From: a bacterium
GTDB taxonomy: Bacteria > Patescibacteriota > Minisyncoccia > Phycocordibacterales > JABMNX01
Direction: 5' to 3'
NCBI GenBank assembly: GCA_002687905.1
Contig: NZBM01000015.1
Span: 2,811 to 66,810 of the forward strand
DNA: 64,000 bases
Within the stretch, counting starts at the first letter, position 1, and the number at the start of each line of letters is the position of its first letter. The notes under the pieces are model-generated. The model was not told where the DNA came from, made no database searches, and saw only the letters and a program-made list of their open reading frames with translations. Made by a program: the position numbers and the translations under genes. Positions 17,663 to 64,000 of the stretch are shown piece by piece.

Positions 17663-19003
17663 ATGTGGCTTAGATTAGCCATATTTTCACTGCTCATTTT
17701 TCCAGGAACTGCTTTTTCGCAGGTTGTTATAAGTGAGATAATGTATGACCTTGAGGGCTCTGATACGGATAGAGAGTGGATGGAGGTTTTTAATGAAAGT
17801 TCTTCTTCGGTTGATTTATCCGGCTGGCGATTTTTTGAAGGAACAAGTAATCATAAACTTACTCTTAAGCAAGGAGGCGCGACTCTTGAGAGTGGGGAGT
17901 ACGCGGTGATAGTAGATGACGACGTTACGTTTCTAATTGATTGGCCGAATTATTCCGGGGCTCTTTTTGATAGCTCATTTTCTCTTAGTAATACTGGCGA
18001 GACTTTAATACTTAGAGACAGCGAACTCTCTGACATTGACTCTGTAACGTATAGCTCCGAGTGGGGAGGCAAAGGAGACGGAAACTCTCTTACCAGAGAT
18101 GATGGTGGTAATTTTTCAGGAGCTCTCCCAACTCCTGGAAGTGGAGATTTAAATTCTGAAGAAGGGAGCTCCGAAGAGTCTTCCGAAAGCTCTTCGAGCG
18201 GAGCTATCTCTGCGACCACTCCACTTTTTACTCCTGAAATTTTTGCCTACGCTGGAGAAGATAGGACAGTCACGGTTGGAGCTGACACAAAGTTTGAAGG
18301 GCAGTCTATAGGACTTGAGGGCGAGCCAATGACCAATGCTAGGTATCTGTGGAACTTTGGAGATGGGAGTATTCGTGAGGGTGAGAATGTACTTCATAAT
18401 TTTAAATATCCTGGGGATTATGTAGTGGTTCTGAACGTGTCATCTGGTCAGTATTCTGCATCGGATAAGATAGTGGTTAGTGCGCTCCCCGCGCAACTAA
18501 AAGTTGCGCGGGGAGAAGATGGAAGTGTAATTTTAGGAAATAGAGAAGATAGAGAAATTGACCTTTCTTGGTGGTACATAAAATCGGGAGACAAAACATT
18601 TCAGCTTCCTGAAATGACTTATATATTAGGGAGTAGCGAGATTAGATTTAGCTCCTCTGTTACTGAATTGTCCGAAATTGCCGAGCTATCACTTCTTTAT
18701 CCAAATGGCTCTATAGCCCTTTTAGAGTCCGAAAATGAGCCACAAAACCAAGTGCCTCAACAGGTAGTTACAGAAGTAGTGCCTAAGAAAAGGGCAGAAA
18801 TTCCTGTTATAGTGCCTGATATAGAGAGGGTTAGTGAGGCGGAAATAAAAGGTGAAGAACAGGTAGCGGCCCCTATCGCTGCTCGGGAATCGGATGATTT
18901 CTATAAATGGATACTTGCACTTTTTGGTCTGATTGGTTTAGGTGTAGGAGCGGGGCTTTATATTCAAAAAGAGGGAAAGGATGAATTTACTATAATTGAC
19001 TAA
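17663..19003 (+). CDS. secreted lamin-tail-domain (LTD) + PKD-domain protein with a C-terminal TM anchor
   Basis: Signal peptide MWLRLAIFSLLIFPGTAFS. LTD motif VISEIMYD...EWMEVFN...LSGW. PKD-like RYLWNFGDGS...HNFKYPGDYVVVLNVSS. C-terminal hydrophobic helix. Confidence 0.65.
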   Translation: MWLRLAIFSLLIFPGTAFSQVVISEIMYDLEGSDTDREWMEVFNESSSSVDLSGWRFFEGTSNHKLTLKQGGATLESGEYAVIVDDDVTFLIDWPNYSGALFDSSFSLSNTGETLILRDSELSDIDSVTYSSEWGGKGDGNSLTRDDGGNFSGALPTPGSGDLNSEEGSSEESSESSSSGAISATTPLFTPEIFAYAGEDRTVTVGADTKFEGQSIGLEGEPMTNARYLWNFGDGSIREGENVLHNFKYPGDYVVVLNVSSGQYSASDKIVVSALPAQLKVARGEDGSVILGNREDREIDLSWWYIKSGDKTFQLPEMTYILGSSEIRFSSSVTELSEIAELSLLYPNGSIALLESENEPQNQVPQQVVTEVVPKKRAEIPVIVPDIERVSEAEIKGEEQVAAPIAARESDDFYKWILALFGLIGLGVGAGLYIQKEGKDEFTIID

Positions 19004-19869
19004 TGGCTAAAGAAAATAAAAAAACAATACTGGTAACCGGCGGAGCCGGCTTTATAGGCTCTCACCTCTGTGAGCGCCTTGTTAAAGGTGGTCATAGAGT
19101 AATTAGTCTTGACAACTACTTCACCGGCTCAAAGGATAATCACGTGGGCGGAGTGGAATATATAGAGGGCCATACTAAAGATATTGAAAAGCATATAAAG
19201 GAGGAAATTAATATAATTTTTCACTTAGGAGAATACGCCAGAGTTGAGAAGAGTTTGGAAGAGCCCGAATTGGTTTGGGAGTTAAATAAGGAGGGAACTT
19301 TTCGTGTTCTTGAGTTTTGTAGGAAAAATAAACCGAAACTTGTTTATGCGGGCTCAAGTACAAAATATGGTGATGGTGGTTTGGGACGTGACCAGAGCCC
19401 ATATGCTTGGACAAAAGCAAGCAACACTGAACTAGTGAGAAATTATGGGGAATGGTGTGGCATAAATTATGCAATAACATACTTTTATAACGTGTATGGG
19501 GGGAAGGAGAGAAGCGGTGCTTACGGAACAGTAATTGCGATATTTAAAGAGAAGTTTAAGAAAGGGGAGTCAATTCCTGTAGTTTCTCCTGGGACTCAAG
19601 TGAGAAATTTTACTCACATTAATGATATTGTTGACGGCCTAATAATGGTTGGGGAGAAAGGTCATGGCGACGATTATGGACTTGGAGATGAGAGGGGATA
19701 CTCAATACTTGAGATAGCAAAGATGTTTGGGGGAGAAATTGATATGTTGCCTGAACGTAAAGGAAATAGAATGGAATCTGACATAGATACGACAAAAACA
19801 AGAGGTTTAGGGTGGTCTCCTCAAAGAGGGGTTGAGGATTATATCAAAGATATAAGCAAAGGTTTATGA
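19003..19869 (+). CDS. NAD-dependent epimerase/dehydratase family protein (short SDR)
   Basis: TILVTGGAGFIGSH Rossmann motif, YAWTK catalytic motif. Confidence 0.7.
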   Translation: MAKENKKTILVTGGAGFIGSHLCERLVKGGHRVISLDNYFTGSKDNHVGGVEYIEGHTKDIEKHIKEEINIIFHLGEYARVEKSLEEPELVWELNKEGTFRVLEFCRKNKPKLVYAGSSTKYGDGGLGRDQSPYAWTKASNTELVRNYGEWCGINYAITYFYNVYGGKERSGAYGTVIAIFKEKFKKGESIPVVSPGTQVRNFTHINDIVDGLIMVGEKGHGDDYGLGDERGYSILEIAKMFGGEIDMLPERKGNRMESDIDTTKTRGLGWSPQRGVEDYIKDISKGL

Positions 19870-21050
19870 AAAGAGTTGTAATATTCTCAACGAATTATTT
19901 CCCGAACGTAGCTGGTGCAGAAATCGCAATAGACGAGATAGCCAAGCGGGCTGATGGAATAGAATTTCATCTGATTACAACTCGATTTTCAAGAAAGGTT
20001 CCGGCAAAAGAGCGTATTGGTAATGTTATTGTTCACCGCGTTGGGGTAGGGAGTGGTTTTGCGTTCTTTGATAAATTACTCTCACCTTTTTTTGGCGCTT
20101 TTAAAGCGTATCAACTAGATAAAAAGAAACCCGTTGATCTTTTTTGGTGCATGATGGTGACGTTTACTTGTGGAGCACCATATATTCTAAATACTCTTAG
20201 GTCTTGGAGGAAAATAAAGATTGTTCTTACACTACAAGAAGGTGATTCTGAAGAACATTTAACGAAAAGACATTTAGGACTAAATGGGCTTGCGTGGAAA
20301 CTTGCACTAAAAAGAGCGGATGTTCTTACGGTGATCAGTACATATCTAGGAAAGCGTGCCAAGAGGCTCGGTTACTCTGGCCCCATACATCTGATTCCAA
20401 ATGCTGTTAATATTTCACATTTTTCTCAGGAATACTCTAAAGACATCCTTAAAGATTTGGAAGAAAAACTCGGAAAGAAAAAGGGAGATGTGTTTATGAT
20501 AACTACGTCTAGGCTGTCTGAGAAAAACGCACTTGATGATGTTATAGAGGCTGTTGCGTTACTTCCCAAGAATATTCATTTTATTGTGCTTGGAATAGGA
20601 GAAGATGAGAGCAAATTGAAGAGATTGGCAGATGATAGGGGGGTAGGTAGTAGGGTTCATTTTGTTGGATATGTCGGCCAGGATGAAATTCCTAAATACT
20701 TAAAAATTTCTGAGATATTTATACGCCCTTCACGTTCTGAAGGATTTGGCATTTCTTTTGTTGAGGCTATGGCAGCTGAAATTCCTGTCATATCCACTCA
20801 AGAGGGGGGAATAGCAGACTTCCTGTTCGATGCTAAACGTAATCCGCAGACGAATTCTACTGGGTGGGCGGTGGATAAAGATTCTCCGCAACAGATAGCA
20901 GACGCTGTCAATAGAATCTTGGAAAATCGAGATGAGGTAGGGAAGACGGTTTCAAATGCTAAAAAGATGGTAGCCGAGAATTATGACTGGGAAAGGATAG
21001 CAAGAGATATGCAAAATAAAGTCTTTGCGCCTCTTACTGGGCTAAGCTAG
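19866..21050 (+). CDS. GT4-family glycosyltransferase
   Basis: RPSRSEGFGISFVEAMAAEIPVISTQEGG signature. Overlaps its neighbours by 4 nt. Confidence 0.75.
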   Translation: MKRVVIFSTNYFPNVAGAEIAIDEIAKRADGIEFHLITTRFSRKVPAKERIGNVIVHRVGVGSGFAFFDKLLSPFFGAFKAYQLDKKKPVDLFWCMMVTFTCGAPYILNTLRSWRKIKIVLTLQEGDSEEHLTKRHLGLNGLAWKLALKRADVLTVISTYLGKRAKRLGYSGPIHLIPNAVNISHFSQEYSKDILKDLEEKLGKKKGDVFMITTSRLSEKNALDDVIEAVALLPKNIHFIVLGIGEDESKLKRLADDRGVGSRVHFVGYVGQDEIPKYLKISEIFIRPSRSEGFGISFVEAMAAEIPVISTQEGGIADFLFDAKRNPQTNSTGWAVDKDSPQQIADAVNRILENRDEVGKTVSNAKKMVAENYDWERIARDMQNKVFAPLTGLS

Positions 21051-21060
21051 CATTTCTAAA

Positions 21061-22182
21061 ATGAAAATATTAATTGCAACAGGGCTGTATCCGCCTGAAA
21101 TTGGTGGGCCAGCAACATATTCAAAGATTTTAAAGGACCAGCTTCCAAAGCATGGTTTTTCGGTGGTTGTACTCCCCTTCTCCACAGTAAGGAAATTTCC
21201 AAAGTTTATAAGACATATAATATTCTTCGTTCACATCTTGAGACTAGGATATGGTAAGGATTATATTGTCTCGCTTGACCCAGTCTCTGTTGGTTTACCA
21301 GCGGCCTTGGCTAGTGCTGTGCTTAGAAAAAAGCACATAATTAAGATCTCTGGTGACTATGCTTGGGAACAATTAACAGAGCGTTATGGCATTTATAAAT
21401 CGCTTGAAGATTTTTCAAAAAATAATTCTAGACGACCTTTCCCTATAAATATATTAAGTAAGGTTGAGTGTTTTGTTGCTAAAGACTCCGAAGCGATAAT
21501 AGTTCCAAGCAAATATCTAAAAGGAATTGTAGAAAAGTGGGGTATCAAGGGCGAAAAAATACACGTTATACATAACAGTGTTAAAGACTTAAATGACCAA
21601 GGAAATGTAGAGATCTTAAGGAGTCTTATTAGATTTGACGGGAAAGTTATTATGAGCGCCGGCAGACTCATCCCACTTAAGCGTTTTGATATGCTTGTGC
21701 GTCTTATGCCAGTTCTTGTTGAGAGGTTTGGAAATATAAAACTTTTCATAGCTGGAGATGGTCCTGAAAAAGAAAAGCTAGAATCTTTAGCAAAGGAACT
21801 TGGTGTTGAAAATGAAGTAGTGTTTTCTGGTTCGCTTGAGCAGGAAGTCTTGTTTAGGTATATAAAAATATCTGATGTATTTGTTCTTAACTCTACACAC
21901 GAGACGTTTCCTCACATTCTCTTGGAAGTGCTTTCAATTGGGCGTCCCGCTATAGCAACGCGAGCTGGGGGAAATCCTGAAATTATTGAGGATGGTAAGA
22001 GCGGAATTCTAGTTTCTTCAGGAGACGAGGACGAATTAGAGAAGAGTATATCTAAAGTCTTATCAAACAAATCCTATGCCCAGAGACTCTCTGTAGGAGG
22101 AAGACGTAGAGCGGAGGTTTTTTCAGAAAAAAGAGCAATTGATGAGTTTATAAGCTTACTTAAAAGATATGAGAGTACTTAG
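21061..22182 (+). CDS. GT4-family glycosyltransferase
   Basis: ETFPHILLEVLSIGRPAIATRAGGNPEIIEDGKSGILV. Confidence 0.75.
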   Translation: MKILIATGLYPPEIGGPATYSKILKDQLPKHGFSVVVLPFSTVRKFPKFIRHIIFFVHILRLGYGKDYIVSLDPVSVGLPAALASAVLRKKHIIKISGDYAWEQLTERYGIYKSLEDFSKNNSRRPFPINILSKVECFVAKDSEAIIVPSKYLKGIVEKWGIKGEKIHVIHNSVKDLNDQGNVEILRSLIRFDGKVIMSAGRLIPLKRFDMLVRLMPVLVERFGNIKLFIAGDGPEKEKLESLAKELGVENEVVFSGSLEQEVLFRYIKISDVFVLNSTHETFPHILLEVLSIGRPAIATRAGGNPEIIEDGKSGILVSSGDEDELEKSISKVLSNKSYAQRLSVGGRRRAEVFSEKRAIDEFISLLKRYEST

Positions 22183-23215
22183 TATTGGTTCAGACAGGAA
22201 GCTTTTTGAGGATGGTAGTTTTGTCTGTGAGCGTACAAAAAAATATGGGGAGCACATGGAGGAACTTCATATTGTGGTTTTTGCACTAAAAAATCTTGGA
22301 TTTAGAAAGAAAAAGATAGGAGAGAATATAACAATCTACCCTACTAATTCCCTAACAAAGTTTCAATATATTGGAGACGCTATAAAGATTGCTAGGTCAA
22401 TAAAATATGATCGAATAACGACACAAGACCCATTTATTTCTGGCTGGGCGGGGGTAAGTATTTCAGCTAAATCAAAAAAACCCCTACAAGTTCAAATTCA
22501 TACAGACTTTCTTTTAGAGGGGTTTCAAAAAGGGGGTTATATCAATCGCTTTTACGTACGTATGGCAAATCACGTACTTCCAAAGGCAGACTGCATACGC
22601 GTGGTATCGGAGAGGATTAAAGAAAATATTGAAGCGAGATACAAGCTAAAATCTATACCAAGAGTATTACCCATTTTTGTTGATATAGAAGCTATAAAGA
22701 ATGCTCCAAAAAATGAAAAAGAATTCCCCTTTCAAATTGCAATGTCTAGTAGGTTAGAGCCTGAGAAAAATATAGGTAGAGCTATAAAGGTACTCAGTAG
22801 AATCGTGAATGAGAGAATAGGAATGGTTATTGTTGGCGAAGGGGGCGAGAGGTTGCGTCTAGAAAAAGTTGCTCGCGACCTTGGTATTGAAAGTGGGGTT
22901 TTATTTAAAGGTTGGATTCAAAACCCAGTCCCCTATATTAAGTCTTCAGATTTGTTTCTTCAGACCTCAGAGTTTGAGGGTTATGGTATGTCGGTGGTAG
23001 AAGCTCTTGCTTCCGGTGTACCGGCTTTGTCCACAGATGTTGGCATAGCAAAAGAATATGGAGCAGATGTTTTTGAAACTGACGAAGAGTTAAAAGAGAA
23101 AATAGAGAGGTATATAGAAAATGGAGGTATGGGTGAGTTGAAGAATTATCCTTACAAAAATGAGGAAGAATACATTAAAAAGTATGTAGAGATGATAGAG
23201 ATATGCGGATCTTAA
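22169..23215 (+). CDS. GT4-family glycosyltransferase
   Basis: SEFEGYGMSVVEALASGVPALSTDVG. Confidence 0.7.
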   Translation: MRVLSIGSDRKLFEDGSFVCERTKKYGEHMEELHIVVFALKNLGFRKKKIGENITIYPTNSLTKFQYIGDAIKIARSIKYDRITTQDPFISGWAGVSISAKSKKPLQVQIHTDFLLEGFQKGGYINRFYVRMANHVLPKADCIRVVSERIKENIEARYKLKSIPRVLPIFVDIEAIKNAPKNEKEFPFQIAMSSRLEPEKNIGRAIKVLSRIVNERIGMVIVGEGGERLRLEKVARDLGIESGVLFKGWIQNPVPYIKSSDLFLQTSEFEGYGMSVVEALASGVPALSTDVGIAKEYGADVFETDEELKEKIERYIENGGMGELKNYPYKNEEEYIKKYVEMIEICGS

Positions 23216-24249
23216 TTACAACGCAGAAAGTTGATAAAGACGACGATGTACTCGGCTTTTTTCATAATTGGATTATTAAACTTGCACCACATTTCTCTGA
23301 GGTTCACGTGATAGCACTTTCTGTAGGAAAGCACGATTTGCCAAAGAATGTGCACGTCTATTCTCTCGGGAAGAGAAGAGGTGATTCCGGATACCTCAAA
23401 ACCTTACGATATATCGTAAGGTTTTATAAATATCTATTTATGCTCTCTGGAAAATATGATGCCGTATTTTCTCATATGAACCCTGAATATATAATTCTTG
23501 CGGGATGGTATTGGAGGCTTTCGGACAAAAAGGTTTTTCTTTGGTATAACCACAAAAAAGGAGGGCTTAGGCTCCGATTCGCCTCTCTTTTCTCGCATAA
23601 AATCTTTTACACTTCACCAAGCGCTTTTACCTCTCGGTACAAAAAGTCTGAAAAAATGCCAGTCGGCGTTGATACTGAGCTTTGTAAAGATATTGAAGTA
23701 AAAAGGGAGAAAAACAGCCTACTCTCCCTTGGTAGAATTTCGCCAGTTAAGAATGTGGAAGTAATTATTGAGGCACTTTCTCTTTTAAATAAAGAAGGAA
23801 TTTCCTTCACGTCTTATATATATGGAGACCCAACGGATAAAGATCTATCTTACTACAAGGAAGTTCTTCAAGGTTCAGAAAATCTCACCGAAGAGGGGGC
23901 TCTAACTTTTAATAAAGGAGTTCCCTATGAGAAAACGCCAAGAATATATAGTGCTTATGAAATTTTTATAAACGCGACACCAAGCGGTAGCTTTGATAAG
24001 ACTATTCTTGAAGCGATAAATTGCGGTATGATTCCTGTTATTTGTAATGAGGCCTTTGGCAAAGACTTTCCGAAAGAACTCTTGTTTACAGAAGGAGATA
24101 GCAAGGATCTTAAAAATAAGTTGGAAAAGCTATTTAATAAAAACGCTGAAGAAAAGAAAGAGCTTCAAAAATATCTACGAGAGCATATACTCAAAGAACA
24201 CAGCCTAGATGATCTAATTCTTTTATTGTCTGATGAGATAAGAAGTTAA
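23203..24249 (+). CDS. GT-B fold glycosyltransferase (GT4-like)
   Basis: N-terminal GT4-like domain and a C-terminal ...ILEAINCGMIPVI motif. Weaker match than its neighbours. Confidence 0.55.
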   Translation: MRILITTQKVDKDDDVLGFFHNWIIKLAPHFSEVHVIALSVGKHDLPKNVHVYSLGKRRGDSGYLKTLRYIVRFYKYLFMLSGKYDAVFSHMNPEYIILAGWYWRLSDKKVFLWYNHKKGGLRLRFASLFSHKIFYTSPSAFTSRYKKSEKMPVGVDTELCKDIEVKREKNSLLSLGRISPVKNVEVIIEALSLLNKEGISFTSYIYGDPTDKDLSYYKEVLQGSENLTEEGALTFNKGVPYEKTPRIYSAYEIFINATPSGSFDKTILEAINCGMIPVICNEAFGKDFPKELLFTEGDSKDLKNKLEKLFNKNAEEKKELQKYLREHILKEHSLDDLILLLSDEIRS

Positions 24250-32696: not shown

Positions 32697-32698
32697 TT

Positions 32699-35831: not shown

Positions 35832-35951
35832 ATTTGTACAAAAATTAGTTGAGCTTTTGATGGGGTTCTTGACCTACTATATTTTTAATGGTAAAAATTG
35901 CTGAGAATCTTAACCGAAACCTGCGCATGCGAGCGCCAGTTACGAAGGGAA

Positions 35952-37001: not shown

Positions 37002-37010
37002 GCTATTCAG

Positions 37011-37047
37011 GGGCGGCACGGATGCATCCGTGCCGCCCTATCTTTTT
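37011..37047 (+). terminator. intrinsic terminator (GGGCGGCACGG-ATGCAT-CCGTGCCGCCC followed by TATCTTTTT)
   Basis: An 11-bp perfect GC-rich stem with a T-tract, 10 nt after the stop. Confidence 0.7.
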
Positions 37048-37080
37048 CAATATTCAAAAATAATGATATAGCTTAATTAT

Positions 37081-49462: not shown

Positions 49463-49466
49463 AAGC

Positions 49467-56074: not shown

Positions 56075-57473
56075 GACAATTTTTATACTCATTAATCGCT
56101 CATTTTTGATACGAAATATTCTTCGTTCAGGAACACTCGAGCTTTTAAAGAAAAAAAGATATAACATTGTCATCTTTTTTGCAGCTCCTGTGCCGCAGTA
56201 TCTTCGGGACGAGTTTGAAGACGATCAGGTAAAACTACACGGCTTTGAGGTATCGCGAACAGGTAGATTGAGGCGTCTTTTTAACAAAACAAAGCGTTAT
56301 GTAATTGTTACGCGTAATACAAAATATAGTGCTAAATACATAAAGCTACTTGAAAATAACGGTTTGCCAAATAAGGAGAGGATAATATCAAGAAAAAAGA
56401 AACCTACTCACAGAATATACATAGAACTTGCCATTGCCTATATTCTAAGCGCAATTCCCCCACTTAAATTTTTCATACGGTGGGGTGAACCTTTTTTCTT
56501 TCCTGAGCACAGTAAGAGGCTCAAGGATTACTTTGATACGTATAAACCAGATCTTATATTCTCAACTTCAACTGGAGGCACTTTTGAGTATCCGTTTATA
56601 AAGGAAGCACGGCGACGTTCGGTCAAGACACTCTCAATACCGAAGAGCTGGGACAATATAAATAATGAATTTATACCACTTGTACCCGACCGGCTTGTAG
56701 TCCAAAACCATGCAAGTAGAAAATCAGCAGAAGATATTCAAAAAATACCCAGAGATCGTATTTCGGTTGTAGGGATGCCACATTTTGATTGGTATAAGAA
56801 AAAAGAAATTCTAAAATCAAGAAAGGAACATTTAGAGAGCAAGGGTCTTGATCCGGACCGAGCACTCATTTTCTTCGGCTCTGAAGGGATATGGGCGCCC
56901 AACGATCATTTAATTGCAGAGAAATTACAGGAATCTATTGAAAAAGATGAATTTGTAAAACCATGTCAGCTTCTGGTTCGTCCGCACTACAGCAATGTTA
57001 GAGAGGATGTATTCAAAAATCTTCGTGGGAAATCTTATGTATCAGTAGATTCTTTTCGTATTGTTGATTTTCTTATAGATAAGTGGGACCAGAGCCTTGA
57101 TGAGACCATAGATTTTGTAAATAGTGTTGCGCATTGTGACATGATGATCAGTATTGCCTCCTCACTTTCACTTGACGCAGCAGCGATGAATAAGCCTTCT
57201 ATAAGTCCTGGGTTCTGGGGAGAGTACGCGGGTGGTAAGGATGTGACCGGCTCAAAGCTCTACAGTACTGACCACGTGCACTGGCTCATGTCTTCTGGTG
57301 GAGTCTGGAAAGTAGATTCCTATGATGAACTAAAAAAGGCAATCAATGCATACCTTGAGAATCCAAAACTTCATGAGGAAGAGAGAAAACGCACGATTGA
57401 GAAACTTTGCTACAAGCTTGATGGAAAAGCTTCAGAAAGACTGGTAGAGGTAATAGAATCAATGTTTGTGTAG
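56058..57473 (+). CDS. hypothetical GT-B-like surface-carbohydrate biosynthesis protein (paralog of 32699..34063)
   Basis: Shares the same motifs as the 32699 gene product, for example KPDLIFSTSTGGT...VKTLSIPKSWDNI. Confidence 0.35.
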   Translation: MEKRNKTIFILINRSFLIRNILRSGTLELLKKKRYNIVIFFAAPVPQYLRDEFEDDQVKLHGFEVSRTGRLRRLFNKTKRYVIVTRNTKYSAKYIKLLENNGLPNKERIISRKKKPTHRIYIELAIAYILSAIPPLKFFIRWGEPFFFPEHSKRLKDYFDTYKPDLIFSTSTGGTFEYPFIKEARRRSVKTLSIPKSWDNINNEFIPLVPDRLVVQNHASRKSAEDIQKIPRDRISVVGMPHFDWYKKKEILKSRKEHLESKGLDPDRALIFFGSEGIWAPNDHLIAEKLQESIEKDEFVKPCQLLVRPHYSNVREDVFKNLRGKSYVSVDSFRIVDFLIDKWDQSLDETIDFVNSVAHCDMMISIASSLSLDAAAMNKPSISPGFWGEYAGGKDVTGSKLYSTDHVHWLMSSGGVWKVDSYDELKKAINAYLENPKLHEEERKRTIEKLCYKLDGKASERLVEVIESMFV

Positions 57474-57476
57474 AAG

Positions 57477-58247
57477 CTACAGGTCAGAAACATCCCATCC
57501 TTCTTTCTTCAGGTTGTTTTCAATCCACCTGTTGTTGAAGTAGTTGTATCTATAGGGAGTGAAATCGTCTGATGTAGCTATGTGGTAACGACCAATTGCT
57601 ACAAATCTGAATCTATCAGTCTCATTGTTGCTCGATTTATGTATGGTAGTCATATACATTACTACTGCGTCACCCGCTTTAGCAGGTGTCTTTATCTGCT
57701 CGTATTTCTCAAGTATTGTCTCATCGATAAGGTTTTGAGTACTGCTTAGTTTTGAGTCTTTTTTTGACGCCACCCTGACAAAACCTTCTTTGTGTGATTC
57801 TTTTGCTATAACGAGTGCTCCACCATCACTCGGTACATCAAGCATCGGGATCCATACCACGAGTCCATTCGTTCCATCTCTGTTTTGTGGGTAATACGAT
57901 ATTTCCTGGTGCCAGCCATAGAGATTTCGAGTGTCTTTTGGGGCGTCCATTCTTTGTATATGTCCTGAATTTGATAGCTCCTCAATTTCTACACCAAGAA
58001 GTTCTGCAACTGTTTTAGGTACTTCCCCAGACGTGAAGATATTATCTAAAACAACACTTGATTGTGCAGAATCATAGAGGGCTCCAAAAGCGTCTGGATT
58101 TTCTTTGCGCAAGGAACCTAAAAGACTATGAAAATCTGTGTTATCTCTCAGGTTTCCACTTCTACCAAGAGAATTTGGCACCGCGGTAAAACGACTTAAG
58201 ATTGCCAAGGTATTTTTTAGAACCAGATCTAACCTCTCTTTCTCCAC
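57477..58247 (-). CDS. PhyH-like / Fe(II)-2-oxoglutarate dioxygenase superfamily protein
   Basis: LYGWHQEISYYP...VVWIPMLDVPSDGGALVIAKESHK pattern. It is the only minus-strand gene in the island. Confidence 0.4.
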   Translation of the reverse strand: MEKERLDLVLKNTLAILSRFTAVPNSLGRSGNLRDNTDFHSLLGSLRKENPDAFGALYDSAQSSVVLDNIFTSGEVPKTVAELLGVEIEELSNSGHIQRMDAPKDTRNLYGWHQEISYYPQNRDGTNGLVVWIPMLDVPSDGGALVIAKESHKEGFVRVASKKDSKLSSTQNLIDETILEKYEQIKTPAKAGDAVVMYMTTIHKSSNNETDRFRFVAIGRYHIATSDDFTPYRYNYFNNRWIENNLKKEGWDVSDL

Positions 58248-58341: not shown

Positions 58342-58964
58342 ATGATACTGTTACCTAGAGCTTTGGTGAGGCGTTTAAAGAGGTGGGGCTACTATATACC
58401 AGCTTACCGATATACACACCGGTCGCTTATGAAAGCCTTCTACTTTCACGAAGTTTTCGGCGAGATTAAAAATGTTGACGGCGATGTGGTTGAATGTGGA
58501 GTAGGCTACGGCAATAGCATAGTAATTCTCGGTAGTTTAGTAGATCTAAACAAAAAAGAGCGAAGGGTAATAGGTTTTGACTCTTTTGAGGGATTCCCGG
58601 ATACAAACGAAGATTGGTCACGGGCAGCACATTTTAAAGGCGCTAACGTAAAAAGAGTAGAGAAGCGAATAGAATCAGCAAAATTACCCATAAAGATCAA
58701 ACTCATAAAAGGTTTTTTGAGGATACCCTTGAATCATATAATGGAAAAATAGCCTTTCTACATATAGATGTAGATATTGCTTCTTCATATATAACAACAC
58801 TTGAGAAATTGTTTGATAAAGTCGAGAGTGGAGGAGTTGTACTTTTTGATGAGTATAAAAATCCACACTGGGTGGAGGCAACTGAAGCAATAGATAAGTT
58901 TCTTGGTGGAAGATACGAAATAAGAAAATGCAAAGTTAACGATAAGTACTATATTGTGAAATGA
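58342..58964 (+). pseudogene. TylF/MycF-family O-methyltransferase disrupted by a -1 frameshift in a T6 run (58713-58718)
   Basis: Frame A (58342..58752) carries ECGVGYGNS...GFDSFEGFP. Frame B continues KIAFLHIDVDIASS...VVLFDEY...WVEATEAIDKFL to TGA 58962-58964. One extra T in GGTTTTTTG would fuse the two frames into KGFFEDTLESYNGKIAFLHIDVD. Confidence 0.5.
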
Positions 58965-60025
58965 GCACCATGACGCAGAACAAGATTATAGAAAACATAT
59001 TTAAGGAAATTGAGGCGATAGGAGACATATCGCAAAAAAATGTAGTGCCGCGAGGTGCACGTGTCTTGCTTGCGTACAAGGTTTTCCGGGCGCTTGATCG
59101 GCATCGTTTTAGACTCGAGCCTGCTGATATTGAAGAGTGTCTCGGGGACCTTGTAGATACACGAGAGTTTCTAGAGAACCTTCTTAAAGAGAATAATTTC
59201 ACCGAATCAGAGAAGACACAAGGTGTAGTAAAAGAGCCAATAGAAGAGGCTGAGCGCATGCAATATCTCTACGGCCTTGCGTGGGGTGAGCAATCAGATC
59301 AGGAGTATTATCACGGCGCATCACACTTTAAAGACAGATTACTTAATAGCAATATTGATATTTCTTTTCTTGAGAGTGCTAATTGTCTTGATCTAGGCAC
59401 TGGACACGCTCGATATGCTCTTGCAATGCTACATCTCGGGGCTAAATCTGTGACTGGAGTTGATTTTAGTAAGTACTGTCTTGATGAGACGGAGAGAAGA
59501 TTAAAATCGCATTCTAAAGAGCGCTCAAAAATAAAACTGGTACATAAAGATGTCTATGATCTTCCAAAGGATATGAACAATACATTTGATTTTGTTTGTG
59601 CAAATAGTTTTATTCACCACCTTTCTGATCCAGAGCGCGCTTTAGAAATAGTATACAAAACCATGAAGCGCGGCGGACACGCTTTTGTATTTGTATTTGC
59701 TGAAGACAATACTCCTACCTGGCGGGCAATAGACTTAATGCGTGAGCTTCTAAAACCTGTACCTATTTGGCATACTCACAAAACTGTCAAAGGATTTGAG
59801 GTTCCAGGTAACAAGATTTTTAACTTTCTTGATTACTCTTATACTCCTATTCAACATAGATTCAAGAGAAAAAAGTTTGAGAAGACTCTCAAGGATATAG
59901 GGTTTAAGGATATTAAATTTCTGGAGGGTGGGGTTATCCATGACTCTGTTCTTCGCTCAAGAATGTTTGAGGCAGACAAATTGCTGTACGGAAACTCTGA
60001 GATCAGGTATCTCCTGAAAAAATGA
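58961..60025 (+). CDS. class I SAM-dependent methyltransferase
   Basis: Motif I CLDLGTGHARYALAMLHLGAKSVTGVDFS. ATGA start/stop overlap with the upstream gene. Confidence 0.65.
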   Translation: MSTMTQNKIIENIFKEIEAIGDISQKNVVPRGARVLLAYKVFRALDRHRFRLEPADIEECLGDLVDTREFLENLLKENNFTESEKTQGVVKEPIEEAERMQYLYGLAWGEQSDQEYYHGASHFKDRLLNSNIDISFLESANCLDLGTGHARYALAMLHLGAKSVTGVDFSKYCLDETERRLKSHSKERSKIKLVHKDVYDLPKDMNNTFDFVCANSFIHHLSDPERALEIVYKTMKRGGHAFVFVFAEDNTPTWRAIDLMRELLKPVPIWHTHKTVKGFEVPGNKIFNFLDYSYTPIQHRFKRKKFEKTLKDIGFKDIKFLEGGVIHDSVLRSRMFEADKLLYGNSEIRYLLKK

Positions 60026-60026: not shown

Positions 60027-61874
60027 ATGTGTGGTATAGCCGGAATTCTTGATCTAAATGAAAGACCTATTAAGAAGGATGTCCTTAAAGCTATGGTGAA
60101 AGCTCAAGTTCATCGAGGTCCAAACGATGAGGGAATCTATATAGACAACTCTATAGGACTTGGTCACAGAAGGCTTAGCATTATTGATCTAAGTAAGGCA
60201 GGACACCAGCCTATGGGAAGTACTCATAAGGATTTACATATCGTAACTAATGGTGAAATTTACAACTACATTGAATTAAAAGAAGAACTTGGAGGAGAGT
60301 ATCAGAGTGCAAGTGATACAGAAGTACTACTAAAAGCATATGAAAAGTGGGATGAGAATTGCCTTTCTCATCTAAATGGCATATTTGCGTTTGCAATCTG
60401 GGACGAAAAAAAACAAAGACTCTTTGCAGCAAGAGATCATATGGGGGTTAAGCCTTTTTATTATGTAATAGAGGGGGGCGTTTTTTATTTTGCATCGGAA
60501 ATAAAAGCGCTTTTTGCGGCAGGAATAAAGGCGGTTCCAAATGACAGGATAATTTCTGATTATCTAAAATACGGTTTTTACGAACATTCAGAGGAGACCT
60601 TCTTTGAAAGTATAAAGCAGTTAATGCCTGGGCACTATCTAACATCAGAGAGAGGTGAAATAAGAGTAAAAAGGTACTGGCACTTGCCGGATAACGTATC
60701 AGATCTTAGCTCTCTTTCTGATAAAGATGTGCAAGACAGATACAGAGAATTAGTTACAAAATCAATAACAAGACAATTAAGAAGCGATGTGCCTGTTGGA
60801 ATTCCGGCGAGTGGGGGGCTTGATTGCTCCATAATAACCGGAGTGGTTAATCAGATTAACGAAGGGCAAAAAAACTTTCAACTTTTTTCCTGGATTTATG
60901 GCAATCCAGATTATGACGAGACGCCCTTTGCAAGCTCGCTTGCAAATTCTTTAGGTTGGGACATTAGTTTTTTTGAACTCTCTCCACAGAAAGCTTTGGA
61001 CATTATTCCTGACGTTATGAAAGCAGAGGAGCAGCCGTTTCCTGGGATATCAATAGTCGCACGTCATCTTTTATACAAAGAAGCTGACCCAAATTTAATT
61101 GTACTTATAGAGGGGCACGGCGGTGACGAGATAGGCGGAGGATATCCATACTATTTTGGAAACTTTATTAGTGATTTGGTAAAAAAAGAAAGCACTAAAG
61201 AAATAGAAACCGAGATTGAAGCCTATGCAAATCTTCACAGACTAACAAAAGAAGAAATGGATTCTGTATTAAAAATGGGTCTTGAAGCCTATAGTAGTGG
61301 TGGAGTATCAGCTGATGCGAGTAAGTTTTCAAGTAGTAATTACTTAAACAACGATTTCATATCATTCGTTAAAAGAGATATGCCTAAACTAGATTTACCT
61401 TTTAAAAGTCGTCTGGCAAACATTCAATATAGAGACCTTCGCTACACCAAGGAGCCAAGAGTCTTGCGCAGCGTAGACAGGAATTCAATGGCTTATGGTA
61501 AGGAAGTAAGAGTCCCTTTCTTAGACCATAAAATAGTAGAGTTTTGTTTTTCCCTTCCACCAAGGCAAAAGATAAGAAATGGCACACAACGCTTCTTTAT
61601 GAGGGAAGCTTTCAAGGATTTATTACCGCCTCATATTCTAAATACTCCAAAAAGGGCTGTTCCTGACCCACAGAGGGCGTGGCTTAAGAACGAGCTTAAG
61701 GATTGGACAGAGGATATATTAAGTTCAGAATCCTTCAAGAGACGGCCTTATTTTAATCAAGAAGAAATACAAAAGGAATACAATAGATATTGTTCAAGTA
61801 CAAAAATAGAGAATTCTTTCCATATATGGCAGTGGATTAACCTTGAGTTGTGGTTTAGAAACTTTATTGACTAA
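60027..61874 (+). CDS. asparagine-synthase-family (glutamine-hydrolysing) amidotransferase, second paralog
   Basis: MCGIAGIL (Cys2 nucleophile)...HRGPNDEG...RLSIIDLS. SGGLDCS PP-loop. Confidence 0.85.
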   Translation: MCGIAGILDLNERPIKKDVLKAMVKAQVHRGPNDEGIYIDNSIGLGHRRLSIIDLSKAGHQPMGSTHKDLHIVTNGEIYNYIELKEELGGEYQSASDTEVLLKAYEKWDENCLSHLNGIFAFAIWDEKKQRLFAARDHMGVKPFYYVIEGGVFYFASEIKALFAAGIKAVPNDRIISDYLKYGFYEHSEETFFESIKQLMPGHYLTSERGEIRVKRYWHLPDNVSDLSSLSDKDVQDRYRELVTKSITRQLRSDVPVGIPASGGLDCSIITGVVNQINEGQKNFQLFSWIYGNPDYDETPFASSLANSLGWDISFFELSPQKALDIIPDVMKAEEQPFPGISIVARHLLYKEADPNLIVLIEGHGGDEIGGGYPYYFGNFISDLVKKESTKEIETEIEAYANLHRLTKEEMDSVLKMGLEAYSSGGVSADASKFSSSNYLNNDFISFVKRDMPKLDLPFKSRLANIQYRDLRYTKEPRVLRSVDRNSMAYGKEVRVPFLDHKIVEFCFSLPPRQKIRNGTQRFFMREAFKDLLPPHILNTPKRAVPDPQRAWLKNELKDWTEDILSSESFKRRPYFNQEEIQKEYNRYCSSTKIENSFHIWQWINLELWFRNFID

Positions 61875-61921: not shown

Positions 61922-62914
61922 ATGTCCGAGAAAAACCCTAAAAAAGGCATGAATTTACTTTATCTTTTTGCAGAGCGTCACCCCAAAAATTTAAGGGAGC
62001 TAATTCGCAGTTATATTCCCCAAGAAGAATTTGAGGTTCGCGAGATGTCGTATTTAGAAAGTACGGAAGATCAAATAGAAAAAATTAAATGGGCTGAGGC
62101 GGCTCTACTTGCTCCTGGGCGTCATCTAAAAGATGAAGTGTTGGCTTCTGGCGGACATCTAAAGCTTATGCAGATTTGGAGTTCCGGATATGACAAATTT
62201 AACCTTAAGGCGGCAACGGAGGCTGGAATTCCTGTGTCTAACAATGGCGGCGCAAATAGAATTGCTGTAGCAGAGCAAACTTTTCTTTTAATGTTGTCAG
62301 TTTACAAGCGCTTACCAGACTCTCATCGCAGAGTTGTTACTGGCAATTGGGAAGGAAATAGTCATGGTATGGATATGTTTATCTTGTATGGGAAGACTTT
62401 GGGGATTGTTGGCCTCGGAGCAATAGGTCGTGAAGTTGCAGTGCGCGCCAAGGCTTTTGGCATGAAAGTTCTTTATTACGATATAAAAAGGTTAAGTCCA
62501 AAAGAAGAAAAAGAGTTTGGAGTGGAATACGCCGAGCTTGAGAGATTGTACAAAGAGTCGGACGTGGTCACCTTACATCTCAATTACACACCTGAAGTTG
62601 AGAATATGATTAGTGCGCGCGAACTAAGCCTAATGAAAAACGGCGCTATCGTCATAAATGCTTCAAGAGGTGAGCTCATTGATAATGATGCGCTATTAAA
62701 AGCTCTAAACGATAAAAAAATTGGTGGAGCAGGGTTTGACGCTCACAGACAGGAACCAACTGTGTCAAATGATCCACTTCTAATGCACCCTAACTTCGTA
62801 GGCACACCTCATATGGCTTGCACATACGACACTCACGTGATGGCGCTTAAGGCATCAATAGAAAATCTACTTCGAGCTAAACGTGGGGAGAAGCCTTTTT
62901 GGCGTGTGAATTAA
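61922..62914 (+). CDS. D-isomer-specific 2-hydroxyacid dehydrogenase (third paralog)
   Basis: LGIVGLGAIGREVAVRAKAFGMKV. Confidence 0.75.
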   Translation: MSEKNPKKGMNLLYLFAERHPKNLRELIRSYIPQEEFEVREMSYLESTEDQIEKIKWAEAALLAPGRHLKDEVLASGGHLKLMQIWSSGYDKFNLKAATEAGIPVSNNGGANRIAVAEQTFLLMLSVYKRLPDSHRRVVTGNWEGNSHGMDMFILYGKTLGIVGLGAIGREVAVRAKAFGMKVLYYDIKRLSPKEEKEFGVEYAELERLYKESDVVTLHLNYTPEVENMISARELSLMKNGAIVINASRGELIDNDALLKALNDKKIGGAGFDAHRQEPTVSNDPLLMHPNFVGTPHMACTYDTHVMALKASIENLLRAKRGEKPFWRVN

Positions 62915-62974
62915 GAATTTAATTGAAATTTATGGCTATATGTTAAGCAATATAGCCGTGCTATAGTGTCAGCC

Positions 62975-64000
62975 ATGTCTATAAGTGTATTTCTAAGAAA
63001 GGCCCTGATTTTTGGTGTATTTTTGGTGCCTTTTATTCCGCTTTTAATAACAAATTCAATGTATTTCCCGTTTATCACGGGCAAGAATTTTTTCTTTAGG
63101 ATTCTTGTTGAAATACTTCTTGCAGGCTGGGTCATACTAGCTCTCTGGGATCCTCAGTATAGACCTCGTTTTACGTGGCTTCTCGGCTCTATTGCAGCAT
63201 TCATCTCAATAATTTCCCTAGCTGACGCCTTTGGAGAAAATCCTCTAAATAGTTTTTGGAGTAATTTTGAAAGAATGGAGGGGCTTGTTGCAATTCTTCA
63301 CCTAGGTGCATATTTTCTTGTGGCTGGGGCACTTCTTAATACAAAGGAGTTGTGGGGTAAATTTTTAAACACGTCAATTGGAGTGAGTGCGATAATAGGA
63401 ATTTACGGATTGTTTCAACTTGGGGGGGCTCTCACAATAAACCAGGGCGGAGTTAGGCTTGACGGAACACTTGGAAACGCAGGTTATTTGGCAATCTATA
63501 TGCTCTTCCACATCTTCCTTACATTTTTGATGCTTACACATTCCTTTAAGCAAAAATGGATACGATATGTCTACGGAGCAATAATTCTTCTTCAGGTGGT
63601 CATTCTTTATCACACCGCAACACGTGGAGCGATACTAGGTCTTGTTGGCGGTGTATTTCTCGCTTTGCTTTTGTTTGGGTTATTTTCCAAGAATAGACCT
63701 GGTATACGTCGTGGAGTTATAGTAGCAATTGTTTCATTGGCCATAGCTACAGGCGGTTTTTTCCTAGCAAAAGATACGTCCTTTGTAAGATCAAGCCCTG
63801 TTCTTTCGCGTATCGCATCAATTTCAATTTCTGAATTAGCACCTCGTCTCGCAATATGGAATATGGGCTATCAAGCTTTTAAGGAGCATCCAATTCTTGG
63901 CTGGGGACAGGAGAATTTCATATTTGCATTTAATAAGTACTATGACCCAGCAATATATAATCAGGAACCATGGTTTGATAGAGTCCACAATATTTTCTTT
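62975..64000 (+). CDS. O-antigen-ligase-family (Wzy_C / WaaL / PglL-like) polytopic membrane protein, 3' end outside the window
   Basis: At least ten predicted TM helices. Conserved Arg region HTATRGAILG and, at the window edge, FDRVHNIFF (HNxx[LF] ligase motif). The frame stays open to nt 64000. Confidence 0.55.
   Translation, partial: MSISVFLRKALIFGVFLVPFIPLLITNSMYFPFITGKNFFFRILVEILLAGWVILALWDPQYRPRFTWLLGSIAAFISIISLADAFGENPLNSFWSNFERMEGLVAILHLGAYFLVAGALLNTKELWGKFLNTSIGVSAIIGIYGLFQLGGALTINQGGVRLDGTLGNAGYLAIYMLFHIFLTFLMLTHSFKQKWIRYVYGAIILLQVVILYHTATRGAILGLVGGVFLALLLFGLFSKNRPGIRRGVIVAIVSLAIATGGFFLAKDTSFVRSSPVLSRIASISISELAPRLAIWNMGYQAFKEHPILGWGQENFIFAFNKYYDPAIYNQEPWFDRVHNIFF

Follow-up and report, generated by a model that had tools for sequence, protein, structure and literature searches.

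This locus raises the question of whether a long run of sugar-biosynthesis genes encodes one pathway to one sugar or several pathways lying side by side. The window analysed here is a stretch of 64,000 nucleotides (nt) from a bacterium of the Patescibacteriota (assembly GCA_002687905.1, contig NZBM01000015.1, positions 2,811 to 66,810); from position 19003 to its end it holds an island of 42 tightly packed open reading frames (ORFs), with gaps of at most 208 bp and 41 of the 42 ORFs on the plus strand. A preliminary description took this island for a single-strand locus encoding a complete nonulosonic-acid (NulO) pathway, probably of the legionaminic/bacillosamine type. The families that it named (a dehydratase, a DegT aminotransferase, two 2-epimerases, NeuB, two cytidylyltransferases, two AsnB amidotransferases and a ligase) lie where it had placed them and passed profile searches, and a large glycan island does occupy the range 19003-64000; glycan genes are also found outside that range, at 1719-5171 and 10396-11235, and a PhyH gene at 57477-58247 runs on the minus strand. 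As to how the families combine, we consider it moderately probable, from sequence comparison, that the locus is a mosaic surface-glycan island in which at least four independent nucleotide-sugar cassettes stand together with assembly and export genes.

The NulO module consists of three adjacent, intact genes. The NeuB-family NulO synthase (41669-42790; Pfam NeuB 215.3 bits, cut-off 22) belongs to a deep clade from the Candidate Phyla Radiation (CPR) and DPANN. The hydrolysing UDP-HexNAc 2-epimerase of the NeuC/LegG type (42795-43976) exceeds the cut-off of TIGR03568 (NeuC_NnaA; 351.6 against 235.9 bits). The NeuA-like CMP-nonulosonic acid synthetase (43982-44704) matches Pfam CTP_transf_3 at 92.5 bits (cut-off 22.6), and its best solved matches are CMP-Neu5Ac synthetases (104, 88, and 86 bits). 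These matches support the presence in the island of a NulO core with NeuC, NeuB and a CMP-transferase. In the predicted route, NeuC would hydrolyse and 2-epimerise a UDP-HexNAc, NeuB would condense the free sugar with phosphoenolpyruvate, and the CTP_transf_3 enzyme at 43982 would make the CMP-sugar; the expected product from UDP-GlcNAc is an acid of the Neu5Ac type (5-N-acyl), with methylation as a possible later step. The path from UDP-GlcNAc through ManNAc to a Neu5Ac-type acid and its CMP form appears to be the only one complete in the window, so that the completeness claimed earlier holds for the three NeuC/NeuB/NeuA steps and for nothing beyond them.

The same three families, in adjacent genes, make up the NeuC/NeuB/NeuA route of Escherichia coli K1 and Neisseria meningitidis; the window CMP-transferase has the ARGGSKG motif, and the FSDHS and EKHF segments of the window NeuB presumably correspond to the metal-binding histidines of N. 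meningitidis NeuB. Unlike these two systems, the window has no NeuD, polysialyltransferase or KpsMT; in their place are a transferase of the GT-B glycosyltransferase fold, a dehydrogenase like phosphoglycerate dehydrogenase (PGDH), and a Wzy_C ligase with tetratricopeptide repeats (TPR). The window NeuB differs as well, as a member of a deep CPR/DPANN clade that falls below the equivalog cut-off.

Related loci indicate that the module stands by itself. Proteins 43-67% identical to the window NeuB are nearly all from Patescibacteria/CPR or DPANN archaea, and the earlier premise of a reduced-genome organism is reasonable on that ground. Eighty CPR/DPANN loci with NeuB were found and the ORFs within ±10 kb were clustered, many of the contigs being shorter than these flanks. 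The neighbours of NeuB, as loci of the 80, are NeuC (65-69), the NeuA-like CMP-transferase (61-67), a D-2-hydroxyacid dehydrogenase (48), a TagF-like GT-B protein (40), Wzy_C with TPR (30), an EamA transporter (21), polysaccharide deacetylase (20), methyltransferase (16-20), Bac_transf (13), formyltransferase (11), a DegT homologue (7), and a CapE homologue (5). No aminotransferase lies within 10 kb in 73 of the 80 loci, and the Hexapep, GNAT and DegT families are not among the 22 commonest neighbour clusters. Because of these counts the NeuC/NeuB/NeuA core is regarded as autonomous, working without a dehydratase or aminotransferase. The recurrent order is TagF-like gene, sometimes a methyltransferase, NeuB, NeuC, NeuA, sometimes a cupin, a conserved family (cluster c18), the dehydrogenase, and Wzy_C; the window keeps this order, with insertions. 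A full-text literature search found no paper on nonulosonic acids in CPR, Patescibacteria or DPANN.

In ten related CPR loci, two NeuB paralogues lie side by side, often with two copies of NeuC and NeuA. These paralogues, together with the deacetylase and formyltransferase neighbours, hint that such a cell may make more than one NulO and may use N-deacetylation/N-formylation chemistry, which this window lacks.

The dehydratase on which the earlier assignment to a legionaminic or diNAcBac (N,N'-diacetylbacillosamine)-type sugar turned points in a different direction. This protein (30587-31579; Pfam Polysacc_synt_2 326 bits, plus Polysacc_syn_2C) is of the CapE/FnlA type, UDP-GlcNAc 4,6-dehydratase/5-epimerase, with TDK and MxxxK motifs, and carries the segment LSTDKAAYPINAMGMTKALAEK. 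The preliminary description had noted TDK and a Met at the Tyr position usual in short-chain dehydrogenases/reductases (SDRs), and had read the Met as the mark of a retaining PglF/WbpM-type enzyme. The motif is present; the retaining assignment does not follow from it. CapE itself reads NAMGISKAM, and the segment STDKAAYPINAMGxSKA is common to CapE and the window protein in the printed alignment; a T-x9-M/Y-x3-K triad is common to CapE, WbjB, and PseB (Dubois 2020, PMC7439481). Since inverting CapE-type enzymes share the Met, its presence is not diagnostic of retaining versus inverting chemistry. Among solved structures the dehydratase scores highest against Staphylococcus aureus CapE (365 bits) and the Acinetobacter baumannii UDP-GlcNAc 4,6-dehydratase/5-epimerase (4j2o, 349 bits), followed by FlaA1/PseB (248 bits), with PglF at 112 bits. 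Among NCBIfam models it matches FnlA at 386 bits (cut-off 730), PseB at 323 bits (cut-off 408), and LegB at 61 bits.

The dehydratase has as companions three genes that are also found with it elsewhere. The DegT-family sugar aminotransferase (24251-25357; Pfam DegT 299.6 bits) scores best against PseC (231 bits, cut-off 423.5) and lower against LegC (197 bits, cut-off 420). The following gene, a non-hydrolysing 2-epimerase of the CapG/FnlC type (25410-26567; Pfam Epimerase_2 275 bits), had been called WecB-type; it does exceed the wecB model cut-off (253.9 against 210 bits), but its closest solved match is S. aureus CapG (373.8 bits over the full length) rather than genuine UDP-GlcNAc 2-epimerases (about 100-125 bits), and its CapG-like homologues, 70-87% identical, are spread across many phyla. 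Overlapping its end is a stand-alone cupin (26560-26976; Pfam FdtA and Polysacc_synt_C) like the C-terminal domain of CapF/WbcJ, a putative C3-epimerase or keto-isomerase; the best match in the PDB is residues 245-356 of Cap5F, and the NCBIfam WbcJ reductase model is matched at positions 250-367. CapE-like, DegT, CapG-like and cupin genes are contiguous in this order in metagenome-assembled genomes (MAGs) of Yanofskybacteria (L095), Pseudolabrys (L096), and Phycisphaerae (L097), with identities to the window of 52-57% for CapE, 56-65% for DegT, 71-81% for CapG, and 51-54% for the cupin; a formyltransferase or GNAT gene lies near the four genes at these loci, and none of the three has NeuB, NeuC or NeuA. 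Because the same four genes recur in three phyla without the NulO genes, the dehydratase and aminotransferase are best placed in a separate mobile cassette, and the single canonical route into which the preliminary description had joined them with NeuB, NeuC and NeuA comes apart.

This second cassette would be an L-FucNAc-type pathway (30587, 24251, 25410, and 26560) in which transamination replaces C4 reduction. S. aureus CapE/F/G, equivalent to Pseudomonas aeruginosa WbjB/C/D and to FnlA/B/C of UDP-L-FucNAc synthesis, supply the best solved matches of 30587, 26560 (the cupin domain of CapF), and 25410. Unlike the UDP-L-FucNAc pathway, the window has only the cupin half of CapF: its SDR half, the C4-reductase, was not found in the window, and the operon has DegT in its place, from which an amino product would be expected and not a hydroxyl one. 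The sequence relationships suggest a UDP-2-acetamido-x-amino-2,x,6-trideoxy-L-hexose, in which the amino group may be at C4, or at C3 if the cupin is a keto-isomerase. The sole spare SDR, at 19003-19869 (Pfam Epimerase 151.8 bits), is GalE/UXS-like; it was considered as the missing C4-reductase and rejected, its best PDB matches being UDP-glucose 4-epimerase and UDP-glucuronate decarboxylase, with CapF not among the 60 matches listed. Directly after the cupin is a gene for a 237-residue protein (unk237, 26918-27631), a possible methyltransferase (sub-threshold Methyltransf_23, 19 bits), and a 56% identical orthologue occupies the same position in L095.

The strongest rival account joins these genes again. 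It holds that the island encodes one legionaminic/bacillosamine pathway in which 30587, 24251, an acetyltransferase, NeuC/LegG, NeuB/LegI, and the CMP-transferase act in series like the UDP-linked SpsM/C/D/G/E/F route of Bacillus subtilis or, in a variant, that the precursor genes lie elsewhere in the genome; we regard this account as possible though unlikely. Its best argument is SpsM, a CapE-like enzyme with a T-x9-M-x3-K triad that nevertheless starts the legionaminic pathway and is complemented by PglF (PMC7439481). The sps genes as a whole resemble the window in having a CapE-like Met dehydratase, a DegT protein, a NeuC-like epimerase, a NeuB-like synthase, and a CMP-transferase, and they include a TagB-like putative transferase, SpsB, where the window has TagF/TagB-like GT-B proteins (PMC7439481). 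Unlike sps, the window has no SpsD-type acetyltransferase, and its dehydratase and DegT genes lie 11-17 kb away from NeuB, in the company of CapG and cupin genes.

Other evidence weighs against the mosaic reading, and part of it speaks for the legionaminic rival. The window NeuB lies below the NCBIfam equivalog cut-offs, with NeuB_NnaB (TIGR03569) at 234.3 against 399.65 bits and PseI at 182 against 340 bits. Its best solved relative, by a small margin, is the B. subtilis legionaminic acid synthase SpsE (155 bits, next to 135 for N. meningitidis NeuB and 108 for PseI), and some of its homologues are labelled legionaminate synthase by JGI. NeuC matches human GNE (203.5 bits) and the diNAcBac 2-epimerase (198 bits) equally well. 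Other parts of the genome could carry the genes for a 2,4-diamino precursor, and the survey of related loci reached no further than ±10 kb, or less where contigs ended. The textbook Neu5Ac route offers no step for the conserved dehydrogenase beside NeuA, so the product may not be plain Neu5Ac. Finally, the step order within the second to fourth cassettes and the roles assigned to the dehydrogenases are our own inference from gene content. Set against the rival are the closeness of the dehydratase to CapE/FnlA-type enzymes, well above PglF and LegB; CapG-type and CapF-cupin-type neighbours that have no role in legionaminic acid synthesis; the movement of the four cassette genes together through three phyla without NeuB/C/A; the preference of DegT for PseC over LegC; and the 73 of 80 related NeuB loci that have no aminotransferase nearby. 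The absence of an evident acetyltransferase, already remarked upon in the preliminary description, also counts here: no island ORF has a Hexapep or GNAT domain, and none was found among the window ORFs scanned, which include seven in 234-7456 and 14469-14735. ORFs of unassigned family were considered as hidden acetyltransferases and rejected: TagF-like GT-B profiles align with two of them, unk351 and unk420, and for unk237 a methyltransferase is the most that its sequence suggests.

A pseudaminic-acid pathway, with the CapE-type enzyme as PseB, DegT as PseC, NeuB as PseI, and the CMP-transferase as PseF, is very improbable. In NCBIfam, PseB is the second-ranking model for the dehydratase (323 bits), and PseC heads the list for DegT (231 bits), as does PseF for the CMP-transferase (170 bits), but all four scores fall short of their cut-offs, PseF at 170 against 206 bits and the other three as given above. 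The island has no homologue of PseH (GNAT) or PseG (UDP-sugar hydrolase), and beside NeuB there is instead a NeuC-type hydrolysing 2-epimerase, which exceeds its cut-off and is not used in pseudaminic acid synthesis. NeuB itself scores higher against NeuB_NnaB (234) than against PseI (182), and among solved structures none of its full-length synthase matches is weaker than the one to PseI.

Equivalog models, solved structures, plasmid-borne homologues and source names do not discriminate, and from sequence the NulO cannot be named: the identity of NeuB to plasmid-borne homologues does not exceed 33.7% (tblastn against annotated plasmids), where NeuB and PseI labels are mixed, and the source names of its homologues are mixed as well ('N-acetylneuraminate synthase family', 'SpsE', and 'legionaminate synthase'). 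The chances of a Neu-type product are roughly even. A legionaminic-type product, made through SpsM-like use of 30587 or from precursor genes elsewhere, is a less likely alternative; the earlier call of legionaminic/diNAcBac-type sugars rested on the non-diagnostic Met and on genes of the separate cassette, and legionaminic acid is best described as unsupported rather than excluded, given the SpsM exception (PMC7439481).

A third cassette, at 35070-40697, appears to be directed to a cyclitol. It begins with a membrane CDP-alcohol phosphotransferase (35070-35831; Pfam CDP-OH_P_transf 35.9 bits), which has weak matches to archaetidylinositol-phosphate and PIP synthases and 44% identical orthologues in two related loci, L088 and L090. 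This gene is followed by an IolG-like GFO/IDH/MocA oxidoreductase (GFO1, 35898-37001; NCBIfam inositol 2-dehydrogenase 192.9 bits, cut-off 355) and a nucleotidyltransferase (37081-37830) with a best match to CTP:inositol-1-phosphate cytidylyltransferase (IPCT; NCBIfam IPCT/DIPPS 73.2 bits). Next is a fusion of 624 residues (37870-39744; Pfam and PDB matches) that joins an N-terminal IPCT-like nucleotidyltransferase to a C-terminal, non-canonical sugar-phosphate cyclase like 3-dehydroquinate synthase (DHQS), and an APH-family kinase (39696-40697; Pfam APH 93.1 bits) ends the group. A family 4 (GT4) glycosyltransferase at 31596-32696 (Pfam match) travels with the cassette, and its 39-41% identical orthologues lie upstream of the CDP-alcohol phosphotransferase gene in L088 and L090.

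The cyclase half of the fusion departs from DHQS in a consistent manner. Its best matches are to solved DHQS (151 bits) and 2-deoxy-scyllo-inosose synthase (DOIS, 127.5 bits), with IPCT the match for the N-terminus. The fusion clade keeps the DHQS catalytic residues and the metal and phosphate ligands; in 54-55 of its 55 members, A, G or S stands in place of the canonical DHQS Arg and Gln in place of the canonical Asn, and the Arg is kept in 45 of 55 stand-alone relatives. The window protein falls outside AroB, both by its aroB equivalog score (TIGR01357; 274.5 bits, cut-off 305) and by its lack of the canonical Arg and Asn. Full-length homologues of the fusion, all generically named, number about 60 and come from Patescibacteria, Spirochaetes, and Myxococcota; an APH kinase is added in one of them, as a triple fusion, and an SDR in another. 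In the loci compared (L087-L091) a dehydrogenase gene and a kinase gene invariably adjoin the fusion gene, joined in CPR by genes for a CDP-alcohol phosphotransferase, a TagF-like enzyme, and an ABC exporter; L088-L091 retain the CDP-alcohol phosphotransferase, dehydrogenase, fusion, APH kinase, nucleotidyltransferase, TagF-like gene, and ABC exporter.

The gene content of this cassette suggests a cyclitol-phosphate pathway ending in a CDP-activated donor, in which the enzymes together would make and transfer a CDP-activated cyclitol phosphate. It shares with the pathways built on IPCT/DIPPS and on cyclases of the DHQS, DOIS and 2-epi-5-epi-valiolone synthase (EEVS) type the IPCT-type nucleotidyltransferases, the adjacent CDP-alcohol phosphotransferase, and the DHQS metal and phosphate ligands; unlike in IPCT/DIPPS pathways, the cyclitol would derive from a DHQS-like cyclase that lacks the canonical Arg and Asn, and not from myo-inositol-phosphate synthase. 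That this is a new CDP-cyclitol-phosphate pathway feeding a teichoic-acid-like polymer is a speculative proposal, held jointly and at the same low probability with two linked proposals given below, on the pairing of cytidylyltransferases with dehydrogenases and on the NulO module as a glycosylation system.

The fourth cassette would combine a cytidylyltransferase of the KdsB subfamily with 2-hydroxyacid dehydrogenases. The cytidylyltransferase (53666-54433; Pfam CTP_transf_3 140 bits) exceeds the cut-off of PRK13368 (283.9 against 255 bits) and lies below that of the kdsB equivalog (124.4 against 155.2 bits); none of the window ORFs scanned matches the KdsA family (DAHP_synth_1). KdsB-like homologues at 55-62% identity were found in a second set of 80 loci, from metagenomes. 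A 2-hydroxyacid dehydrogenase gene lies no more than 3.5 kb from the KdsB-like gene in 30 of the 39 loci of at least 8 kb, immediately downstream in 10, and a NeuB-like gene is beside the KdsB-like gene in 5 of these loci. The window has three such dehydrogenases. HADH1 (48515-49462; Pfam 2-Hacid_dh_C 181.8 bits) has orthologues of about 70% identity 2.5-3.4 kb downstream of KdsB-like genes in three of the loci. The PGDH-like HADH2 (49440-50423; best PDB match the short PGDH 1wwk, 149 bits) is orthologous to the dehydrogenase found after NeuA in 48 of the 80 NeuB loci, and all 50 members of that cluster have it as their best match. The third (61922-62914; Pfam 2-Hacid_dh_C 202.3 bits) is directly upstream of Wzy_C. 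Two types of CTP_transf_3 enzyme are each, then, recurrently paired with a 2-hydroxyacid dehydrogenase, the NeuA-like with the HADH2 type and the KdsB-like with the HADH1 type.

To our knowledge, no textbook ulosonic-acid pathway uses such a dehydrogenase, and the Tannerella NulO paper mentions none; papers in which nonulosonic acids and 2-hydroxyacid dehydrogenases both come up deal with unrelated topics. The pairing might represent a new step; for example, an aldonic acid could be oxidised at C2 to give the 2-ulosonic acid for CMP activation, or the dehydrogenase could provide a glycerate- or lactate-type substituent. This is a doubtful proposal, graded as one with the cyclitol pathway above and the glycosylation system below.

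Between HADH2 and the KdsB-like gene are three further genes. A thiamine diphosphate-dependent, acetolactate-synthase-like enzyme (50420-52012) matches the Pfam TPP_enzyme N, M, and C domains, with its best NCBIfam score, 146 bits, far below the cut-off; a second GFO/IDH/MocA oxidoreductase (GFO2, 52022-53020) was identified by Pfam and matches the IolG model at 119.5 bits (cut-off 355). These two were considered as a conserved part of the KdsB cassette and rejected, since they co-occur with KdsB-like homologues in 0 and 1 of the 39 loci, respectively. The third gene encodes a protein of the DEDDh (RNase_T/KapD-like) exonuclease fold (53013-53597; Pfam RNase_T 50.9 bits, NCBIfam KapD 48.7 bits), an odd family for a sugar operon; it sits between GFO2 and the KdsB-like gene and its reading frame overlaps both.

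How the activated sugars are transferred is suggested by the glycosyltransferases. Two proteins resemble TagF and Tannerella forsythia BFO_1060: TagF1 (32654-34063; Pfam Glyphos_transf 36.2 bits, cut-off 22.1) and TagF2 (56058-57473; 24.0 bits, the same cut-off). They match the NCBIfam BFO_1060 model (NF046086) at 67.7 and 53.2 bits, both below the cut-off of 200. TagB-like enzymes, of which BFO_1060 is the T. forsythia homologue, have been genetically shown to add a terminal pseudaminic or legionaminic acid derivative to an O-glycan (PMC5420450). Because of the BFO_1060 match and the linkage to NeuB in 40 of 80 loci, the TagF-like enzymes are the best candidates for CMP-NulO transferases; they could alternatively transfer a CDP-activated polyol or cyclitol phosphate. 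The island resembles the O-glycosylation locus of T. forsythia in having CMP-NulO genes beside TagB/TagF-like GT-B genes and heavy tailoring (PMC5420450, PMC5378307); it differs in that its organism belongs to CPR and in that TagF1 and TagF2 score only 68 and 53 against the cut-off of 200.

Further GT-B-like proteins may belong with these. The conserved protein unk351 (47354-48409), of the c18 family, whose place in related loci is after NeuA and before the dehydrogenase, has no Pfam or NCBIfam match; in hhalign comparisons it scores 99.9% against c18 and 96.4% against the TagF-like profile. The 420-residue protein unk420 (54437-55699) has weak TagF-like GT-B similarity (hhalign 58.6%, E 1e-4, 242 columns) and a sub-threshold match to DUF6365 (19 bits). 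It is followed by a 123-residue protein (55703-56074; Cupin_2 14.9 bits, sub-threshold). GT4 glycosyltransferases are encoded by four consecutive genes (19866, 21061, 22169, and 23203, together 19866-24249; Pfam Glycos_transf_1 135.6, 133.2, 93.6, and 48.8 bits) and by one at 29499-30581 (Pfam Glyco_trans_1_4 55.5 bits).

The TagF-like transferases also bear on the last rival, under which the NulO genes would not serve the cell's own surface glycan, being scavenging-related or decaying, and the island would be mainly a locus for a teichoic-acid-like polyol- or cyclitol-phosphate polymer. Two to four TagF-like transferases, the CDP-alcohol phosphotransferase, the ABC exporter, and the CDP-cyclitol-type cassette would suit such a polymer, and one tailoring gene, the TylF-like one, is indeed frameshifted. 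NeuB, NeuC and NeuA are intact, however, and the exact NeuB protein occurs on 22 contigs from several samples, including GCA_030746155.1; the NulO module is syntenic with Wzy_C across CPR, and the island showed no genes for sialic-acid catabolism or uptake. On balance this rival is improbable.

In the mosaic reading, the glycan would then be tailored by amidation, methylation, sulfation, and hydroxylation, and the expectation of heavily modified sugars holds good, with amidotransferases, methyltransferases and a sulfotransferase all present. The two AsnB-family glutamine-dependent amidotransferases (27633-29462 and 60027-61874) had been called PseA-like and assigned to acetamidino formation. 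Both are there, and both exceed the cut-off of the glutamine-hydrolysing asparagine synthase model TIGR01536 (459.7 and 436.5 against 267 bits); no PseA/WbuX-type model is listed for the first at E ≤ 1e-5 or for the second at E ≤ 1e-3, and the PseA-like label is best dropped. AsnB-like enzymes of polysaccharide loci, such as WbpS, amidate carboxyl groups, and carboxyl amidation seems more likely here than acetamidino formation. Methyltransferases are fewer than the at least five first counted. Three that depend on S-adenosylmethionine are intact: 40697-41656 (Pfam Methyltransf_23 93.9 bits), 44706-45449 (Pfam Methyltransf_11; likely start ATG at 44706, and 247 residues long in other assemblies), and 58961-60025 (Pfam Methyltransf_11 61.6 bits). 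One more, unk237 at 26918, is sub-threshold. The other, a TylF-like O-methyltransferase recognised by three-frame translation (58342-58960), is frameshifted in a T6 run at about 58709-58714 (sequence GGTTTTTTGAGG), where T7 instead of T6 would restore the conserved K-G-F-F-E-D-T reading. Phase variation of this gene was considered and rejected, the identical T6 in three other assemblies pointing to a fixed frameshift. The sulfotransferase (34065-35033; Pfam Sulfotransfer_3 59.7 bits) and a PhyH-family Fe(II)/2-oxoglutarate dioxygenase (57477-58247; Pfam PhyH 50.8 bits), the only minus-strand gene of the island, complete the tailoring set.

Assembly would begin outside the island. An initiating phosphoglycosyltransferase with Bac_transf and CoA_binding_3 domains (2899-4254, plus strand; Pfam Bac_transf 184.5 bits) is the candidate priming enzyme that would load the lipid carrier, and its family (cluster c13) is found near Wzy_C in 13 related loci. 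On its two sides are another GT4 gene (1719-2900, minus strand; Pfam Glycos_transf_1 131.5 bits) and an SDR nucleotide-sugar epimerase/dehydratase (4254-5171, plus strand; Pfam Epimerase 224.9 bits). Six GT4 and two to four TagF/BFO_1060-like GT-B transferases would build the glycan on the carrier. A fused exporter with transmembrane and nucleotide-binding domains (45467-47269), like HepA, MsbA, and PglK (NCBIfam 337, 327, and 224 bits, all below cut-off), is the candidate flippase. A membrane protein of the Wzy_C (O-antigen ligase/PglL) type, starting at about 62975 and cut by the window end at 64000 (341 residues; Pfam Wzy_C 59.4 bits, cut-off 31.7), would transfer the glycan en bloc to protein or another acceptor. 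In two other assemblies the full-length protein has 725 residues and includes TPR repeats. The en-bloc transfer proposed at the outset is consistent with this confirmed Wzy_C protein, a ligase that is also found after the NulO genes in 30 of 80 loci.

This list of parts (Bac_transf, the ABC protein, and Wzy_C/TPR) agrees with a glycan that would be assembled on a lipid carrier, flipped, and transferred en bloc. It resembles en-bloc glycosylation of the Neisseria/Campylobacter type (priming phosphoglycosyltransferase, PglK/PglF flippase, and the Wzy_C O-oligosaccharyltransferase PglL) and O-antigen ligation by WaaL in bringing a Bac_transf priming enzyme, a fused ABC exporter, and Wzy_C into one window. 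Unlike those systems, the window Wzy_C has a C-terminal TPR region, and the priming gene is 15 kb away, beyond a 16S rRNA gene.

The setting of the island gives some further indication of its history. Three genes have a GC content well above the island average of about 39%: the IolG-like gene at 35898 (53.5%), unk351 at 47354 (49%), and the TPP enzyme gene at 50420 (46%). Such single genes of much higher GC speak for a mosaic origin or recent piecemeal acquisition. NCBI lists a protein with 100% identity to the window NeuB under a 'Candidatus Pacebacteria bacterium' MAG, and the exact protein is also present in ERZ5402418, ERZ27286381, SRR25584962, and ERZ841001. Island proteins recur without change in numerous public assemblies (NCBI, JGI, ENA, Logan, and Tara-tagged records), run ERR594290 among them, and the organism or a near-clonal population of it appears to be geographically widespread.

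Upstream of the island, an Rfam scan of the window located a 16S rRNA gene at 7908-9607 and tRNA-Ile at 10321-10394, and matched nothing else, with no riboswitch or other RNA within the island. The 16S rRNA gene is 1700 nt long against a model of 1533 nt, which amounts to about 170 nt of insertions. The next gene after the tRNA already encodes a protein, and neither tRNA-Ala nor a 23S rRNA gene is found there; the rRNA operon appears to be unlinked, as is often reported for CPR bacteria. This next gene (10396-11235, plus strand; Pfam UDPG_MGDP_dh_N and central domain) encodes a short UDP-glucose/GDP-mannose dehydrogenase-like protein, and a similar short form (cluster 12) adjoins Wzy_C in 14 related loci. 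Between 14608 and 19003, just upstream of the island, are a putative DUF4015 glycosyl hydrolase, a TrwB/TraG-like coupling ATPase, and a 446-residue protein with lamin-tail and PKD domains, which is possibly a glycosylated surface protein and a candidate acceptor.

As a category, the island is a known kind of locus, a polysaccharide/protein-glycosylation cluster with a NulO module. What takes it beyond routine is its lineage, the conserved synteny of NeuBCA, GT-B, dehydrogenase, and Wzy_C/TPR genes, and the presence of two uncharacterised recurrent cassettes. For the reading of such loci in general, Met for Tyr in Polysacc_synt_2 dehydratases does not predict retaining chemistry, and genes that share an island do not necessarily share a pathway. 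Three uncharacterised recurrent gene sets are now defined: CapE/DegT/CapG/cupin; the cassette of the cytidylyltransferase/DHQS-like fusion; and the pairs of cytidylyltransferase and 2-hydroxyacid dehydrogenase.

CPR/Patescibacteria are mostly uncultured, have genomes of about 1 Mb, and are thought to live attached to host cells. Surface chemistry is likely to be central to this lifestyle, and this organism gives about 45 kb of its genome to one glycan locus. The genes for NeuB, NeuC, NeuA, sometimes a GT-B protein, the PGDH-like dehydrogenase, and Wzy_C/TPR might represent an undescribed surface glycosylation system of ultra-small episymbionts, built on a non-canonical ulosonic acid; this remains a long shot, with a probability shared among it, the dehydrogenase pairing, and the CDP-cyclitol pathway. 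In its synteny with the Wzy_C/TPR ligase, the NulO module is a concrete candidate for the source of molecules of attachment or of immune-like evasion.

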